Shown here: positions 5,016 through 62,760 of the stretch, piece after piece
How positions within the stretch are numbered: position 1 is the first letter of the stretch
Layout: the number at the start of each line of letters is the position of its first letter
DNA from: Eledone cirrhosa
Taxonomy: Eukaryota
Length of the DNA: 64,000 nucleotides
Reading direction: 5' to 3'
Assembly: GCA_964016885.1 (NCBI GenBank)
Contig: OZ024741.1
Coordinates: 23,188,001 to 23,252,000 of the forward strand
Translations under genes and position numbers: made by a program
The notes under the pieces: model-generated
Told to the model about the DNA's origin: nothing
Database searches by the model: none
What the model saw: the letters and a program-made list of their open reading frames with translations, nothing else

Positions 5016-8000
5016 TCATCATCATCACCGTTTTACGTCCGTTCTTCCACGCTAGCATGGGTTAGACGGGTTGTCCTGTTGTGGGTAGTGTCTGGTCGGC
5101 TGACCATGCCTTGCTCATACAGGAACTGATCTGGCTTGATTTCTACAGCTGGATGCCCTTCCTAACACCAACCTCATTTACAGTGAGTGCTGGGTGCTTT
5201 TTCGTGGCGCCTACACGTCCACTTTACAGTGTGGGCTGGGTGCTTTTTTGCTGTGGCGCCTCCACAACCACCTTGCGGTAGGGGGGGGGGGGCATATTGT
5301 TTATATGCTTCAGCATGTACCCATGGGAGGTCGGGTACCCTGTATTACTGCGTGACGCCAGAAGTCACGGTCGTGTGTCATTGACTTTGAGAGGTGTAGT
5401 TGGGTAAGGTCGGCTTTTATCACCTCATCCCAAGTCATCTTGGGTCTCCCCACTCCGCGGTTTCCATCAACTTCTAGTGCTCTGCACCTTTTTATGCAGC
5501 TGTCATCCTTCATACGCATCACATGTCCATACCAGCGTAACCGCCTCTCCTGGACGCAGCATTTGATTCCTCTTATGCTCAGTCTCTCTCTCAATTCCTT
5601 TATGCTTTGTCGTTCACGTATATTACTGTTGCACATCCATCGGAGCATGCAGGCTTCGTTTCTCCCTAATCTACGTAAGTCTTCCACCTTCAGCGCCCAG
5701 GTCTCACTACCATGCAACATCGCTGTTCGGATACACGCATCATACAGTCTGCCTTTCTTTCTGAGGGAAGCCTTTTGCAGCTAGCAGTGGTAGTAGTTCC
5801 CTAAACTTCTTCCATCCCGTTCTTACCCTAGTTATTGTACTTTCTGAGCACCCACCTCCGTTGCTAGTTCGGTCACCTAGGTAGCAGAAGCTGTTTACTG
5901 TTTCTACAGGGCCCTCCCAGAGATTGGTGGTACTTGTTTCCTGTGGCTGTTTGCTTGCTGTTTCAGCACAGCTGCTGCATGTGAATCCTACATTCTTAAT
6001 TAAGCTTCCTGAGATCCCGCTACATCTCTTGTGTACCCATTGTTTGCATTTGGGGCAGAGAATGGAGTTCCTACCTACACCTTTCCTACATACTGAGCAA
6101 GGCCATTTCCCTGAGCGGATCTGGGTTCTGTTTTCTCGTCTACTTATAAGGACCTTAGTCTTTGTCATGTTGACTTTGAGGCCCTTTCTCTCTAGTCCCT
6201 GCTTCCAGGTTTGGAATTTATTCTCTAGTTCTACCATAGATTCAGCTATGAGTGCGAGGTCATCAGCATACAGGAGTTCCCATGGGCATCCGGTCTTAAA
6301 CTCCTCCGTTATTGCCTGCAGGACTATGATGAACAGGGGAGGGCTAAGAACAGAGCCCTGGTGGACCCCAACCTGTACGCTAAATTCCTCGCTATACTCA
6401 TTGCCAATCCTAACTTTGCTGACTGCTCCCCTATACATGGCTTGTACTGCTTTCACAAGCCATTCATCTACTCCTAGTTTTCTAAGAGCCCACCAGATTA
6501 CTGCACGTAGAACTCTGTCAAAGGCTTTCTCAAGGTCGACAAATGCCAAGTAGAGTGGCTTACTTTTAGCTAGGTACTTTTCCTGTAATTGCCTCACAAG
6601 GAAGAGGGCATCAGTGGTGCCTTTCCCTGGTACAAACCCAAATTGCATCTCGTCTATATTCACCCGGTCCCTAATCAGCTGTGCTATAACTCTTTCTGTT
6701 ACTTTCATGACCTGGTCCATCAACTTTATACCTCTATAGTTTCCTCTATCTAGTGCATCGCCTTTACCTTTGTAGCAGTTGACAATGATGCTACTGCACC
6801 AATCTTTTGGTATGGCCCCCTCTAGTATTACCTGGTTAACGATACGTGTGGTTATAGTGTGACCTACAGACCCAGATGCCTTCAGCATCTCGGCAGCTAT
6901 ACCCGATGGACCGGTTGCCTTCCCTATCTTCATATCTCTGATTGCCTTACTTACTACGCTGCCGCTGACTTGTACTGCTGGTCCCTCTATAGGGTCTACG
7001 TGGGGTAGGGTCTCTTCTTCCCATGCATTCTCCTCATTTAGTAATCTATCATAATGACTCTTCCATGCATCTTTCTTCTCAGCACTTGTGAGGGCAAGCT
7101 CACCGTTATCATTCCGGATACACTTCTCTCCAATGACATCACAACTATCTCTGACACACTGCCTCGCAATCTTGAATACCTCCCGTTTCTGGTCCTCACA
7201 TTGTAAAACATGCTTGAATTTTCTATCCTCTGCTTCCCTCCTAGCTAAGTATACTTGTCGCCTAGCTTCCCTCTTGGTCTCTATGTAATGTACCCTGCTC
7301 CCCCCGTTCTTCCATTCTTTCCATGCCTGTCTCTTGGCCTTGACTGCTTCATCTACCTTATTGTTCCACCACCAAGTCACTCTCCTCCTGCTTGAGGTCT
7401 TACTCCAGCCACAAACCTCATCCGTCGCCTCTAGTAAGTTATTTTTTAGGAACTCCCAGTTCTCTTCTACGTTAAACGTCTCTATCTGTTCTTTACTGTC
7501 GTAGGCGTTGAGTAAAATATCTTTAAATCTGTTACTGGTTGAGGGGACTTTCAGCTTCCAGATCTTTCTTCTCCAGGTTGGCCTCTGTTTCAGGGCTCGT
7601 CTAGTTCTGACCGTGAGGTCGCTGACAACTAAGCTATGTTGGGATGTACATTCCTCACTAGGGAAGGCTTTTGTGTTTACGACCGTCCATCTGTCACGTC
7701 CTCTGATGAGGATAAAATCTAACTGACTAGAGTGCTCCCCTGATCTATAGGTGATCAGGTGGTTGTCGGGTTTTTTAAAGTTTGTGTTACATATCGACAT
7801 GTCATTGGCGTCGCAGAATTCTAGAAGTCTGAATCCATCCTCATTCCTTGTGCCAACTCCATGGCCTCCATGTACTCTATTGAAGCCGTCGCAGTGTTTA
7901 CCTACGTGTCCGTTAAAATCTCCTGCAATGATTAGGAAGTCCTTGTCTGTTAGAGCAGTAGTGTGTATTAGGGACTCGTAAAACCTATCCTTAAGTTCGT

Positions 8001-8497
8001 CTGGCAGCCCCGATTGGGGTGCGTAAGCTGATATTATTGTGGTAATTGTCTTATTCAGGACTAGTCTGAGTTTAATGATTCTTGCACTTACCCTGTTCAC
8101 TGAGATTACTTTATCTACCCACTTGTCAGCTAATAGTATACCTACACCACCCATCCCATCGTCATTTCCCACCCAGAAAAATTTGTAGCACTGGCTTTTT
8201 CCTACAAGGACTCTAGCAGACCCTCCTCTCCATCTAGTCTCTTGCACACAGCATACATCAACTTCCTTTCGCTCTAGCATTTCTACGATTTCTCCTGCTC
8301 TTCCTTTCATTGAGCCTACATTGATGGTACCAACTCGGAGTTTTGGGCATTTGTCGACACTCGTAGGGGAGGGTCTCTGGGTTGGCGCTTCACGTGGGTG
8401 CTTGGTAGCTCGCAGATTCATATTTCATCTATTGATTCAGAGTTGCTCGTGTATTCCCAGCTCATCCATCCATAACGGTGGGAAAATTGAGGGCTAG
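5016..8497 (-). mobile_element. RTE-clade LINE, near full length (family A, copy 1)
   Basis: APE endonuclease plus RT ORF, a 3' UTR with 40-bp repeats, and terminal CCCATGCTAGCGTGG...(GAT)n tail. Confidence 0.96.
5310..8421 (-). pseudogene. RTE ORF (APE + RT + PHD-like Cys/His finger), one frameshift near 5760
   Basis: Motifs GTINV, VQETRW, GDFNGH, QFGF, FVDLEKAFD, GVHQGS and YADD are present. A 2-bp deletion relative to copy 2 splits the ORF into 893 aa and 136 aa. Confidence 0.93.
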
Positions 8498-15927: not shown

Positions 15928-18900
15928 ACAATGTCTTTATCTAGGGACATTTTATGGATCTTAACTCTAAAATAAATTGCAAAAATCATTATAAATCATT
16001 GTGAAGCGCCAATCCAGAAACAGGAAGCACACACACACCCCTGCAAAAATCGACCCTTCCCTATGAGTGTCGACAAATGCCCAAAACTCCGAGTTGGTAC
16101 CATCAATGTAAGCACAATGAAAGGAAGAGCAGGAGAAATCGTAGAAATGCTAGAGCGAAAGGAAGTTGATGTATGTTGTGTGCAAGAGACTAGATGGAGA
16201 GGAGAGTCTGCTAGAATCCTTGTAGGAAACAGTCAGTGCTACAAATTTTTCTGGGTGGGAAATGACGATGGGATGGGTGGTGTAGGTATACTATTAGCTG
16301 ACAAGTGGGTAGATAAAGTAATCTCAGTGTACAGGGTAAATGCAAGAATCATTAAACTCAGACTAGTCCTGAATAAAACAATTACCACAATAATATCAGC
16401 TTACGCACCCCAATCGGGGTTGCCAGACGAACTTAAGGATAGGTTTTACCAGTCCCTAATGCACACTACTGCTCTAACAAACGACAATGACTTCCTAATC
16501 ATCGCAGGAGATTTTAACGGACACATAGGTAAACACTGTAATGGCTTCAATAGAGTACATGGAGGCCATGGGGTTGGCACAAGAAATGAAGAAGGATTCA
16601 AACTTCTAGAATTCTGCGACGCCAATGACATGTCGATATGTAACACAAACTTCAAAAAACCCGACAACCACCTGATCACCTATAGATCAGGGGAGCATTC
16701 TAGTCAGATAGATTTTATCCTCATCAGAGGACGTGACAGAAGGACGGTCGTAAACACAAAAGCCTTCCCTAGTAAGGAATGTACCTCCCAACATAGCTTA
16801 GTTGTCAGCGACCTCACAGTCAGAACTAGACGAACCTGGAAACAGAGGCCAACCTGGAGAAGAAAGATCTGGAAGTTGAAAGACCCCTCAGCCAGTAACA
16901 GATTTAAAGATATTTTACTCAACGCCTACGACAGTAAAGAAGAACAGATAGAGACATTCAATGTAGAAGAGCACTGGGAGTTCCTAAAAAAATAACTTAC
17001 TAGAGGCAACAGATGAGGTCTGTGGCTGGAGTAAGACCACAAGCAGGAGGAGAGTGACTTGGTGGTGGAACAATAAGGTAGATGAGGCAGTTAAGGCCAA
17101 GAGACAGGCATGGAAAGAATGGAAGAACGGGGGGAGCAGGGTACATTACATAGAGACCAAGAGGGAAGCTAGGCGACAAGTATACTTAGCTAGGAGGGAA
17201 GCAGAGGATAAAAAATTCAAGCATGTTTTGCAACGTGAGGACCAGAAACAGGAAGTATTCAAGATTACGAGGCAGTGTGTCAGAGATAGTTGTGATGTCA
17301 TTGGAGAGAAGTGTATCCGGAATGATAAAGGTGAGCTTGCCCTCACAAGTGCTGAGAAGAAAGATACATGGAAGAGTCATTATAATAGATTACTAAATGA
17401 GGAGAATGCATGGGAAGAAGAGACCCTATAGAGGGGCCAGCAGTGCAAGTCAGCAGCAGCGTAGTAAGTAAGGCAATCAAAGATATGAAGATGGGGAAGG
17501 CAACCGGTCCATCGGGTATAGCTGCCGAGATGCTGAAGGCATCTGGGTCTGTAGGTCACACTATAACCACACGTATTGTTAACCAGGTAATACTAGAAGG
17601 TGTCATACCAAAAGATTGGTGCAGTAGCATCATTGTCAACTGCTACAAAGGTAAAGGTGATGCACTCGATAGAGGAAACTATAGAGGTATAAAGCTGATG
17701 GACCAGGTCATGAAAGTAACAGAAAGAGTTATAGCACAGTTGATTAGGGACCGGGTGGAACTAGATGAGATGCAATTTGGGTTTGTACCAGGAAGAGGCA
17801 CCACTGATGCCCTCTTCCTTGTGAGGCAGTTAAAGGAAAAGTACCTAGCTAAAAGTAAGCCACTCTACTTGGCATTCGTCGATCTCGAGAAAGCCTTTGA
17901 CAGAGTTCCAAGTGCTGTAATCTGGTGGGCTCTTAGAAAACTAGGAGTAGATGAATGGCTTGTGAAAGCTGTACAAGCCATGTATAGGGGAGCAGTCAGC
18001 AAAGTTAGGATTAGCAATGAGTATAGCGAAGAATTTAGCATACAGGTTGGGGTCCACCAGGGCTCTGTTCTTAGCCCTCTCCTGTTCATCATAGTCCTGC
18101 AGGCAATAACGGAGGAGTTTAAGACCGGATGCCCATGGGAACTCCTGTATGCTGATGACCTCGCACTCATAGCTGAATCTATGGTAGAACTAGAGAATAA
18201 ATTCCAAACCTGGAAGCAGGGACTAGAAAGAAAGGGTCTCAAAGTCAACATGACAAAGACTAAGGTCCTTGTAAGTAGACAAGAAAACAGAACCCAGATC
18301 CCCTCAGGGAAATGGCCTTGCTCAGTATGTAGAAAAGGTGTAGGTAGGAACTCCATTCTCTGCCCCAAATGCAAACAATGGGTACACAAGAGATGTAGCG
18401 GGATCTCAGGAAGCTTAATTAAGAATGTAGGCTTCACATGCAGCAGCTGTACTGGGACAGCAAGCAGCAAACAGCCACAGGAAACAAGTACCACCAATCT
18501 CTGGGAGGGCTCTGTAGAGACAGTAGGCAGCTTCTGCTACCTAGGTGACCGAATTAGCAGCGGAGGTGGGTGTTCAGAAAGTACAATAACTAGGGTAAGA
18601 ACGGGATGGAAGAAGTTTAGGGAACTACTACCACTGCTAGCTGCAAAAGGCTTCTCCCTCAGAATGAAAGGCAGACTGTATGATGCGTGTATTCGAACAG
18701 CAATGTTACATGGTAGTGAGACCTGGACGCTGAAGGTGGAAGACTTACGTAGATTAGAGAGAAATGAAGCCTGCATGCTCCGATGGATGTGTAATAGTAA
18801 TATACGCGAACGACAAAGCATAAATGAATTGAGAGAGAGACTGAGCATAAGAGGAATCAAATGCAGGAGAGGCGGATGCGTTGGTATGGACATGTGATGC

Positions 18901-20367: not shown

Positions 20368-20487
20368 AAATGCCTACTACAGCTCCTAGGTTTCCCAAGT
20401 GGTCACCCATCCAAGTACTAACTAGGCTCGACATAGTTTAACTTCAGTGATCAGACGAGAACCAGTGTTTTCAGTGTGATATGGCCG
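20368..20487 (-). pseudogene. 5S rRNA retrocopy
   Basis: Minus strand reads CGGCCATATCACACTGAAAACACTGGTTCTCGTCTGATCACTGAAGTTAA...TTAGTACTTGGATGGGTGACC...GTAGGCATTT, with multiple CpG-decay changes. Confidence 0.93.
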
Positions 20488-20962
20488 GTCCAATAAAAAA
20501 TAAATTTAAATATCAAAAATACTAACGAAGGAGAAAATGTTGAAATGTTGGTAAATTTCTAGCACCCCTTCGTATATCACTTAATAATGATTTAAGAAGA
20601 GAGAATTTTGTTTTCACTAATTACAACTACAATTCATGTGTTCCAGAATGGCCTTCATTGTAAATTTGTCTTCAGAAAACAAGTTGTAAAATTCTTTAGG
20701 GTAAGATGAGTCGTTAATGTCTAAGTCAGTTCTTATTCATCAGAGCTACTCCCAAGATGAGTTGAGGGATCATGTCATGCTCATATGTTTCTCTGGCTGG
20801 ATGCCCTTCCTAATACCAACCACTGAACTAGAAGTGTTTTATCAGAGCACCAGCACTAAGGATGCTGATAAGTACTCAACGTGACTAAAGAGTCCTCTTT
20901 ACCTTACATTCTCGACCATTTTACAAAGTGTACGGAATTCAGTTTATAATTATGGCACTAGT

Positions 20963-54574: not shown

Positions 54575-57085
54575 TAGGCAGGAGGAGAGTAACATGGTAG
54601 TGGAACAGTAAGGTGGAGGAGTCGATTAAGGCCAAAAAGCAGGCTTGGAAAGTATGGCGGGATGGGGGAAGTAGAGAAGACTATCAAGTGGCCAGGAGGG
54701 AAGCCAGGAGACAAGTATACTTCGCAAGAAGGGAAGCAGAGGAAAGAAAGTTCAAGCATGTTCTACAACGCGAGGACCAAAAACGTGAGGTGTTCAGGAT
54801 TGCTAGGCAATGTGTCAAGGACGCTGATAAGAAGGTCGCTTGGAAGTGTCACTACGAGAGGCTACTAAATGAGGAGAATAAATGGGAGAAGGATAGTCTC
54901 CCCCAGATCGATCCAATAGAGGGACCAGCAGTGTTAGTTGAAGGTAGTATAATAAGTAAGGCAATCAAAGATATGAAGACGGGTAAGGCGGCTGGGCCTT
55001 CGGAAATAGTTGCTGAGATGCTGAAGGCCTCTGGAACGGTGGGACACACCATGGTCACCCGGATAGTAAACCAAGTCATACAGAATGGGGTTGTTCCGAA
55101 GGACTGGCGTAGCAGCATCAACATTAACTGTTACAAGGGTAAAGGAGACGCCCTAGATAGGAGTAACTATAGAGGGATTAAATTAATCGACCAGGTCATG
55201 AAGGTCACGGAAAAAGTAATAGTGCAACTAATCAGAGAGAGAATCGATCTAGATGAAATGCAGTTCGGGTTTGTGTCAGGCAAAAGTACCATAGACGCTC
55301 TTTTCATTGTACGACAACTAGAGGAGAAGTACCTAGCTAAAAGTAAACCCCTATACTTAGCCTTTGTCGACTTGGAGAAAGCCTTCGACAGAGTCCCCCG
55401 TTCCATTATCTGGTGGGCTCTTAGAAAACTAGGTGTTGACGAATGGCTTGTGAGAGCTATACAAGCCATGTATAAAGAAACAGTGAGCAAGGTTAGAATT
55501 AACAACGAATATAGTGAAGAGTTTAGCGTAAAAGTTGGTGTCCATCAGGGCTCTGTTCTTAGCCCCCTACTATTCATTATTGCTCTTCAGGCTATAACAG
55601 AGGAGTTCAAGACTGGCTGCCCATGGGAACTCTTATACGCAGATGACCTAACGCTCATAGCCGAATCAATGGCCGAGCTAGAGAAGAAATTCCAAACATG
55701 GAAGCACGGCCTAGAATCAAAAGGCCTTAAAATTAACCTGGCTAAGACTAAAATTCTAGTTTGTAGGAAAGAAAATAAGGCGCCGGTCCCTTCCGGGAAA
55801 TGGCCATGCTCAGTGTGTAGGAAAGGCGTAGGTAGAAACTCCATTTTATGTCCCAAATGCAAAGTATGGGTGCATAAAAGATGTAGTGGGATCACAGGTA
55901 AGCTAACTAAGAACACTGATTTTACATGTGGCGGTGCTCTGGTGCAATAAGTAGCAGCAAGTGCCCACAAAATACTAGCTCTTTCAACTGCGCAGAGGGT
56001 TCTATAGAAATAGTGGACAGCTTCCGTTACCTGGGTGACAAAATCAGCAGTGGGGGAGGGTGCTCTGAAAGTACAGTAGCTAGAGTCAGAACTGGATGGA
56101 AAAAGTTCAGAGAGCTTATACCACTATTAGCCGCTAAAGGGTTCTCCCTAAAAATGAAAGGCAGGTTGTATGATGCCTGCATACGAACAGCAATGTTGCA
56201 TGGCAGTGAGACCTGGGCATTGTGTGCAGAGGATATACGCAGACTAGAGAGGAACGAAGCTTGCATGCTCCGCTAGATGTGTAATAGTAATATACGCGAA
56301 CGGCAAAGCATAAACGAACTAAGGAAAAAATTAGAAATAAGAGAGATCAGATGTTGTTTACTCGAGAGAAGGCTACGTTGGTATGGTCACGTGATGCGCA
56401 TGAAAGACGACAGCTGTATAGCAAAGTGCAGGGCAATAAAGATAGACGGTAGCCACGGAGTAGGCAGACCCAGAAAAACCTGGGACGAGCTGATAAATTC
56501 CGACCTCACACACTTACACCTCTCCAAGACAATGTCACTGGACCGAGATCTTTGGCGGTACTCAGTAATAGAGAAGACCCGCCTTACCTAAATACAAAGT
56601 AAAAACCTACTACAGTCAGTAGGCATCTCTAACAAAATACACCCCCGTCCTACCAACCCCACCCCATCCACACCGCCCCTTTCAATGTAAAGTTATGTTG
56701 GTGCCACAAAATCCAGGCCGAAACAAATGAGATCGTGTAGGTGTCACGACAAAAAAAACACAGTCCACGCTGTAATGTGACCGTGTAGGCAACACGGTAA
56801 AAACCTCCCAGTCCCACACTGTAAATGTGGTTGGTGTTAGGAAGGGCATCCAGCTGTAGAAAACCCGCCAGACAGTCCACGCTGTAATGTGGCCGTGTAG
56901 GCAACACGGTAAAAACCTCCCAGCCCCACACTGTAAATGTGGTTGGTGTTAGGAAGAGCATCCAACTGTAGAAAACCCGCCAGACAGTCCTATGCGAGCA
57001 AGACAACCACTCTTGCCTCAAGTGGGAAAACTCCCGTCCAAACCCATGCAAGCGTGGAACATGGACGTTAAACGATGATGATGAT
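54575..57085 (+). mobile_element. RTE LINE subfamily A2, 5'-truncated and disabled
   Basis: RT with YADD and Cys/His finger. Internal deletion, frameshift at ~55935, stop at 56274, duplicated 3' UTR segment and (GAT)n tail. Confidence 0.95.
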
Positions 57086-61148: not shown

Positions 61149-61238
61149 TATATATGACGAAGGAAATGCGGTAAGGAACCAGATGGACCATAACGCACCA
61201 AAGTACTCAATACTTAGGGTAGTAGAGTGGGTAATAGG

Positions 61239-61362
61239 AACGAGTAGGACCCGACGGCTGAGCTCAAGCCGTTTCGACGGCTAATTCTGGACTAAAAAAA
61301 TTTTTTTAGTCCAGAATTAGCCGTCGAAACGGCTTGAGCTCAGCCGTCGGGTCCTACTCGTT
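61239..61362. repeat. Perfect 124-bp spacerless palindrome containing a hammerhead 3' half
   Basis: Centre A7|T7 at 61300/61301; contains GTC-GAAAC-GGCTTGAGCTCAGCC-GTC. Confidence 0.9.
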
Positions 61363-61365
61363 ACT

Positions 61366-61838
61366 ATCATCATCATCATCATCATACGTCCGCTTTTCCC
61401 TGCTTACAAGGGTGGGACGGGTCTTATTCAGCACAGCATCTCTCCACTCGTCACGGTCCTTCGTCATTTCCACCGTGAGCTTCAATGATTTGAGGTCTGT
61501 TCTCACCACCTCCGCCCATGTTTTTCGTGGTCTACCTCTGCCACGTCTTCCTTCAACTGGCATTTCCTGGCACTTCTTCACCCATCGGTCATCCTCCATG
61601 CGCATCACGTGTCCATACCACCTCAGTCTCCTCTCCCGTACACTACATTCTATCTCTCTCAGACACAGTTTCTCTCTCAACACATTTATGCTGGGTCGTT
61701 CACGCACATTTACATTGCACATCCAACGGAGCATGCTTGCCTCATTTCTCTCCAGCCGTCGCATATCCTCTGCAGTTACTGCCCATGTCTCACTACCATG
61801 CAGCATCGCGCTCCTCACACAGGCATCATACAACCGGC
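61366..61838 (-). mobile_element. RTE family B 3' fragment
   Basis: Translates YDACVRSAMLHGSETW...RRLRWYGHV...GRGRPRKTW. Confidence 0.93.
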
Positions 61839-61968
61839 CTATTTTTATATATATATGATTATATATATATATATATGTTTATATATATATATATGTTTAC
61901 ATATATATGTTTACATATATATATAAATGTTTATATATATATATAAATGTTTATATATATATATAAAT

Positions 61969-62016
<48 letters not shown>

Positions 62017-62140
62017 GTTTATTTATATATATATATGTTTATATATATATATATATATATGTTTATATATATATATGTTTATATATATATATATATGTTT
62101 ATATATATATATATATGTTTATATATATATATATATATAT

Positions 62141-62600
62141 ATTAGAATTGGAGCTCTGAAATAGCAATATATATATGGATGTATATATAATGTATTTTGC
62201 AATACACTTTATGCTTAATTAAAAGCATTTTGAAGACCGTTTGCTATTGTTTTAGAGTAGTGACAAATTCACTTACTTTAATCTCAGCAAACAGGGGAGA
62301 TAAGCCGACAAGGCCTTGTTTCGCTTTTGTTGAAGCTTATCAAGGCTAACTACCCCTCCTGTCTACTGAGATTACTGATGTTATATTCTTATTGAATTCT
62401 AGTAAACATTCAGGAACTGATTATACAGAGCGATTGTTGGTCAGGCAGAAATTAAAAATTAGAATTGGAGCTCTGTTTGCTGAGATTAAAGTAAGTGAAT
62501 TTGTCACTACTCTAAAACAATAGCATACGGTCTTCAAAATGCTTTTAATTAAGCATAAAGTGTATTGCAAAATACATTATATATACATCCATATATATAT
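62141..62600 (-). mobile_element. Retrozyme-like ~317-nt HHR unit with terminal redundancy and inverted tail copy
   Basis: 18-bp direct repeat at 62141-62158 and 62458-62475. 128-bp inverted repeat at 62167-62294 and 62473-62600. Confidence 0.65.
62279..62374 (-). ncRNA. Type I hammerhead ribozyme, U3-A8 covariant, extended stem I
   Basis: AGCC-TTGATAA-GCTT-caacaa-AAGC-GAAAC-AAGGCCTT-GTC-GGCT, with an outer 17-bp helix containing two G-U pairs. Confidence 0.85.
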
Positions 62601-62760
62601 ATGTTTGTTAATATATCCATTTGTTAATATATCGTATTTTTACTCCAATAATTTGTTGAGTGCTTTATATCAGTTATAAAAATATTTGCTTGTTGTATCC
62701 CAACAATTTAAATGGAACTTCTACATATATATATATATATATATATATGTTTATATATAT

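Follow-up and report, generated by a model that had tools for sequence, protein, structure and literature searches.

A non-coding 317-nt hammerhead-bearing insertion in Eledone cirrhosa, probably made by a PLE enzyme from a circular RNA

The DNA studied here, referred to as the window, is a stretch of 64,000 nucleotides from contig OZ024741.1 of Eledone cirrhosa, and close to its end, between positions 62141 and 62600, a short repeat is embedded in TA-rich sequence. The question raised by this locus is what kind of element has been inserted there and from which template it was copied. In a preliminary description it was proposed to belong to a retrozyme family, copied slightly more than once around a circle of about 317 nt. 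The analysis of the genomic copies makes it likely that the window copy is a non-coding insertion of the non-LTR retrozyme kind, with a hammerhead-bearing unit of 317 nt, that it was made by the protein of an autonomous Penelope-like element (PLE), and that its template was a circular monomer RNA.

The window copy consists of two arms of opposite orientation. Arm 1 (62142..62475, minus strand) comprises one 317-nt unit plus 17 nt, has its 3' end at the start site referred to as S2, and differs from its subfamily by four substitutions (at 62409, 62407, 62393 and 62241). The 18-mer direct repeat of the preliminary description is found at a spacing of 317 nt: its first copy (62458..62475, minus strand) forms the 5' end of arm 1 and is a piece of the next unit, and its second copy (62141..62158, minus strand) forms the 3' terminus of this arm, the outermost base being common to the (TA)n tract. 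Arm 2 (62473..62600, plus strand) is inverted and 5'-truncated (unit 182-299), and its 3' end is at the site S1 (62590), followed by TA, such that the ends of the insertion pair S2 (62142) with S1 (62590). The match of 62473-62600 with 62167-62294, over 128 bp and with one mismatch (62526/62241), is as described previously, and so is the overlap of 3 nt (62473-62475), which is a microhomology at the head-to-head junction of the two arms (62473..62475). Arm 2 ends 35 nt short of the terminus, and its last 10 nt are TA common to the target. The corresponding 35-nt 'tail' (62142..62176, minus strand) lies between the inferred reverse-transcription start sites S1 (62177) and S2 (62142). The (TA)n setting is correct for the left side, where a TA-rich target tract covers 61846..62141, and overstated for the right side, where the short (TA)n (62591..62602) has only about six repeats. 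As stated before, there is no ORF: the longest stop-free frame on the circularised 317-nt unit is 34 aa in the sense and 52 aa in the antisense direction. A frame of 28 codons (62228-62142, minus strand) has a conserved AAAATG start and ends exactly at S2 in the family of the window copy, referred to as family A; the frame of the sister family C is different. The family A frame may be what is left of the start of an ancestral PLE.

Several other features are seen in the window. Beside a TA tract there is another repeat (61156-61367) with a perfect palindrome of 62-bp arms centred at 61300/61301, and this resembles a two-armed insertion of some other PLE-type element; related sequence is present in 18 of 152 family A loci. 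Further away, a 5S rRNA-like sequence (20374-20492, minus strand; Rfam 83.7 bits) and LINE ORFs (5743-8424, minus strand; 15976-18894 and 54601-55947, plus strand), with matches to an APE endonuclease, a reverse transcriptase and a PHD finger, are found.

The hammerhead is borne out as a predicted type I ribozyme on the minus strand (62347-62303; feature 62303..62347), and it is the only one in the window copy. It is complete, as had been claimed, having the core UUGAUAA (62343-62337), stem I (AGCC/GGCU), stem II (62336-62323, 4 bp), GAAA (62322-62319) and a palindromic helix III (62319-62308), all on the minus strand, with a predicted cut after C17 at 62307. Its core is the U3-A8 variant, not the canonical C3-G8. 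Both the U3-A8 core and the palindromic helix III have been described as variants that occur among PLE hammerheads (PMC4209133). No match for the hammerhead region is found at the Rfam gathering threshold (score 52), Hammerhead_HH9 being a hit below it with 23.9 bits (E 0.0019), and the scanner used for hammerheads is loose, giving three matches in the window versus zero to one in five shuffles. The hammerhead is located at the tip of a long stem (62280..62373, minus strand), whose pairs covary across three families. The circularised unit folds with -76.4 kcal/mol, compared with -49.5 +/- 5.1 kcal/mol for 100 shuffles; the antisense strand likewise folds well (z -3.6). For the active hammerhead fold, the predicted energy exceeds that of the minimum-energy fold by 4.8 kcal/mol, and the helices III of two unit copies are predicted to form a duplex of -19.5 kcal/mol. 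Across 12 representatives of families A, B and C, which stand for only three deep, related lineages, 88% of the cells pair and 11 of the 31 pairs change on both sides, including the pair 3-8 (U-A in eight and C-G in four representatives). When considering the hammerhead of family C, none of ten template-level changes is in the core, which is what a need for cutting during spread would predict. In family A, core-damaging alleles are fixed at three loci (A9G in L184 and L241, U16.1A in L221); dimeric cleavage could rescue A9G, and hardly U16.1A. Taken from these comparisons, the hammerhead structure appears to be conserved and under selection.

The unit is one of a group of related repeats. For family A, a 26-mer taken from the hammerhead has 1,075 exact matches in the 3.0-Gb genome (0 for the reversed control), and there are 1,457 candidates for the unit, of which 39 were scored. 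Family B (loci L082-L111) has a unit of about 315 nt, 70% identical to that of A, and 2,720 candidates, whereas family C (L148 and L282-L321) has a unit of 310 nt with 59% identity to A, 8,864 exact hammerhead matches and 1,030 exact 3' ends. Both sister families have canonical hammerhead cores. A motif common to the families has 22,129 exact genome matches, and in viral contigs it has none. Family A was sampled as 32 loci with a full unit, as 49 loci of contig C1 ascertained through their hammerhead pattern (after removal of one near-duplicate), and as 70 loci ascertained by the 3' end alone among the matches listed (of 360), where nine loci already sampled were left out and three duplicate the second sample. 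The family C sample has 40 loci, being 39 of the first 40 matches listed and one further locus.

Tandem copies exist, as the circle proposal had anticipated: at 50 of 148 family A loci one arm has at least two whole hammerheads, and among the tail-ascertained loci two hammerheads in one orientation are seen at 18 of 70. Arrays reach 6.5 units in family A, and one sampled arm of family C has 27 whole units; another observation is a family C arm that spans about 14 kb. The 18-mer of the window is an internal junction of tandem units, and it is itself incidental. Since the arms run from 45 to 1103 nt, the phrase 'slightly more than once round' only describes where the window arm happened to end. 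The median arm length is about 270-300 nt in family A, compared with about 1,200 nt in C; the short arms of family A may have collapsed since insertion, so the 1.05 rounds of the window copy need not be the original length. Of six sequencing runs from four organisms, none is on record as RNA. In three of the runs (X4, X5 and X6) a 340-nt contig (310 + 30, a closed cycle) is obtained for family C; tandem DNA gives the same contig, and it is not counted as evidence for a circle. Each of the four runs compared has coverage of family A.

It could be argued that the window copy is what remains of a long coding PLE, namely its truncated pseudo-LTR end, or that the 18-mer is a target-site duplication. 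The tail, the inverted arm and the TA target are indeed all PLE features (PMC8557442), and the 51 PLE loci examined are a small part of 10,596 GIY-YIG candidates. Against this, what precedes the unit on its 5' side is in every case further unit sequence or a truncation, and at none of 152 family A loci, compared with nine PLE proteins, is the element the colinear 3' end of a coding PLE. The 18-mer is not a target-site duplication, being internal to arrays, and any such duplication would be hidden by the (TA)n flanks. For the loci examined, this explanation is hardly credible. A PLE protein match is found near nine of the 152 loci, in eight cases well outside the element; at L006 it adjoins the family A element in the opposite orientation.

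Autonomous PLEs are nevertheless present in the same genome, with reverse transcriptase and GIY-YIG ORFs, one of 937 aa being located between two pLTR hammerheads. Seven of nine PLE proteins of the genome have a CX2-5CxxC motif, which has been linked to microsatellite targeting (PMC8557442). The coding PLEs at L067, L073, L077 and L081 have two end sites, TA targets and an S1/S2-like pairing; at L078 and L079, which are loci of the PLE family F1, a crude end finder gives the same end on both arms. In or near PLEs, at least eight further hammerhead sequence types are seen (L031-L081), several having U3-A8 cores. In the 51 PLE loci, BLAST and a five-unit profile give no pLTR match to the unit, which is a point against the PLE route. 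Two observations considered as links to a helper were discarded. A family B neighbour beside a GIY-YIG locus is judged to be accidental. At three loci (L006, L155 and L195) an arm and a PLE end meet head to head; the PLE ends come from three different families and two of the junctions are in the TA run of the unit, and therefore these cases are read as neighbours in one microsatellite. The L195/L330 junction, where a family A arm and the final ~90 nt of an L062-type PLE meet head to head with no TA between them, is the only candidate mixed insertion, from which the helper could be identified.

The usual insertion of family A has two arms that are joined at their 5' ends, with the 3' ends pointing outward into (TA)n. 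These 3' ends are at S1 (unit 299) or at S2 (unit 334, at times up to 341), and in family A as well as in family B S1 and S2 are 35 nt apart. Of the 49 loci in the hammerhead-ascertained set, 30 pair S1 with S2, none pairs S1 with S1 or S2 with S2, nine have one unclassified end and ten are single or other; the two-armed insertions with both ends classifiable thus have different sites in 30/30 cases. The tail-ascertained set has 46 S1+S2 and three S2+S2 loci, eight unclassified and 13 other (46/49 classifiable), and the full-unit set of 32 loci has 16 S1+S2, two S2+S2 and one S1+S1 (16/19 classifiable). For family C the pairing is S1+S2 at 38 of 40 loci, and the other two are a single-armed and an unresolved locus. 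At 52 simple arm junctions there are 30 overlaps, four blunt joins and 18 joins with extra bases. The S1/S2 two-arm pattern is typical of PLEs, which often have a tail of 30-40 nt at just one of their ends, occur as copies that are inverted and truncated, and insert into microsatellites (PMC8557442). The pattern is explained by the in vitro properties of a lizard PLE, which has two adjacent internal start sites, cuts and extends both strands, and cleaves AT-rich sequence (PMC11167929).

The template can be addressed by considering how the arms pass through the predicted cut site, at which copies of a cut linear monomer would end. This site is crossed by 55 of 70 S2 arms, 13 of them crossing it twice and five three times. 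The 116 5' ends of family A are spread evenly (0.34 per 100 nt), with one at the cut site compared with 2.0 expected. For family C, two of 67 distinct 5' ends are within 5 nt of the cut site compared with about 2.3 expected, a count that leaves out 16 repeated rows of L313. Indels at the cut site are seen once in 303 passes, with 1.9 expected, and in none of 321 family C units. It is conceivable that the template was the cut linear monomer, the reverse transcriptase reaching its 5' end and jumping to the 3' end of that monomer or of a different one, which would give equally uniform tandem arms and would be in agreement with a change of allele in the middle of an arm of L306. Such jumping is very unlikely, as neither 5' ends nor indels are in excess at the cut, and there remain a circle or an uncut multimer.

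These two templates differ with respect to the variants that the units of one insertion have in common. In family A the divergence is 1.7% between tandem units and 2.1% between arms, compared with 4.3% between loci; subfamily alleles agree in 526/546 tandem and 522/575 cross-arm comparisons, versus 19% between loci, and 19 rare alleles, at 18 of 128 loci, are fixed in all copies. Among 148 family A loci, no pair shares two unit-position-specific differences. The strongest evidence for clonality comes from the sister family C and not from the family of the window copy. Family C, the youngest, is nearly mutation-free, with 38 single-unit differences in 321 units, and in 32 loci it has 18 haplotypes, each being repeated through all units. 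Of its arms with at least four units, 33 of 34 are uniform, and both arms agree at 23 of 24 loci, compared with 48 of 552 (8.7%) cross-locus pairs. Twelve variants, including indels, are each fixed in one locus only, and nine are partly spread. A variant that is present in every unit of both inverted arms is most simply explained by one monomer being read many times.

At position 129 of family C, A>G recurs on several haplotypes and switches within an arm of L306, which may reflect editing, two templates or conversion. Among template-level alleles A>G accounts for 7/19, compared with 46/540 (4/16 distinct sites, P 0.04); editing or selection favouring G-U pairs could account for this excess, which is left out of the evidence.

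An insertion by a PLE from the uncut linear multimer of a tandem array, its uniformity being due to homogeneous sources, later expansion or gene conversion, is unlikely, albeit with several observations in its favour. The lizard PLE does not need hammerhead cleavage and works mainly on uncut RNA in vitro (PMC11167929); core-damaged templates were copied; an uncut multimer, too, would be read evenly through the cut site; and tandem amplification by unequal crossover has been proposed (bioRxiv 10.64898/2026.07.22.740005). The longest family C arrays (L295, L296 and L318) also have shared variants in scattered units, which points to turnover of the arrays or to an array as template, and one unit-level variant of L296 is present in both arms. 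Nevertheless, this explanation needs at least 18 separately homogenised sources despite only 38 single-unit differences in 321 units, and the nine partly spread variants are to be compared with 12 fixed in one locus alone. Moreover, haplotypes are common to both inverted arms, and no in-register inheritance is seen between the sampled loci of families A and C. The circle is probably the main route, and both routes may operate. The proposal of a circular-RNA template in the preliminary description is thereby supported by the genomic copies, the circle being read from DNA, and since every testable feature of non-LTR retrozymes is present, so is the assignment to a retrozyme family.

From the architecture of the insertions, the S1/S2 pairing, the finding that stops are not in excess at the cut site, the uniform haplotypes and the conserved hammerhead structure, which are observed directly, we infer a sequence of transcription, cleavage, ligation and copying of a circle by an enzyme. 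An arm with at least two units would be transcribed, the hammerheads would cut, probably as dimers formed via the palindromic helix III, and the monomer would be ligated to a circle. A PLE protein with reverse transcriptase and GIY-YIG domains would then nick both strands of a (TA)n tract, one cDNA being primed at S1 and the other at S2. Each reverse transcriptase would run round the circle and stop at a random point, after which the two cDNA ends would be united head to head, in many cases at a short run of bases common to both. With some reserve, we favour the view that these families are the DNA record of rolling-circle target-primed reverse transcription on ribozyme-made circles, where a dimeric PLE enzyme with two active sites primes on the same circle at two fixed positions, with one start per nicked strand, and proceeds for tens of rounds. 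Each insertion would then be a clonal snapshot of one circle, possibly with A-to-I edits.

The circle as a template for reverse transcription and the PLE as a helper have been put forward as a hypothesis (PMC7229834, PMC4209133, PMC7761336). A 2026 preprint derives non-LTR retrozymes from PLE pLTRs, calls the mechanism unresolved and ascribes the arrays mainly to unequal crossover, according to its available text (bioRxiv 10.64898/2026.07.22.740005). In the literature searched, no test of the circle route by insertion anatomy was found; supplementary insertion maps, such as Fig. S9 of PMC7229834, may bear on this claim. Taken singly, all of the features are known, and the value of the present data is in the combined genomic evidence and in a ready test. 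The insertions of the very young family C discriminate between the circle and crossover routes and carry the two-site signature of PLEs, and the genome thereby points to an RNA of 310-317 nt, a pair of start sites and candidate enzymes that could be tested directly in vitro.

When compared with the EN+ Neptune-type PLEs, the window element has in common the 30-40-nt tail at one end only, the inverted 5'-truncated arm, the partial tandems and the microsatellite targets (PMC8557442), the two internal start sites downstream of the hammerhead (PMC11167929), and the U3-A8 core with a palindromic helix III (PMC4209133). Unlike these PLEs, it is without an ORF, a reverse transcriptase and an endonuclease, it consists entirely of one repeating unit, and this unit has no sequence match to any pLTR of the 51 PLE loci. 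The non-autonomous Chlamys PLEs (MRC1) are likewise non-coding PLE dependants with multicopy head-to-tail insertions (PMC8557442). According to the available text of the same paper they generally resemble an autonomous family at the 3' end, and most are without hammerheads, whereas the window family has a conserved hammerhead and no matched partner in the 51 PLE loci. The closest correspondence is with the non-LTR retrozymes of animals, which are also non-coding tandem units of 150-450 bp with low GC, no LTR and one type I hammerhead per unit, in genomes that also have PLEs (PMC7229834; bioRxiv 10.64898/2026.07.22.740005). For retrozymes, inverted two-arm S1/S2 insertions in (TA)n are not described in the available parts of these two sources. 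Their circles were visualized by northern blot, with the copying step treated as hypothetical in the available text (PMC7229834), whereas here the circle is read from the genomic copies. The window family differs from those retrozymes in its strong genomic footprint of copying and in its U3-A8 core.
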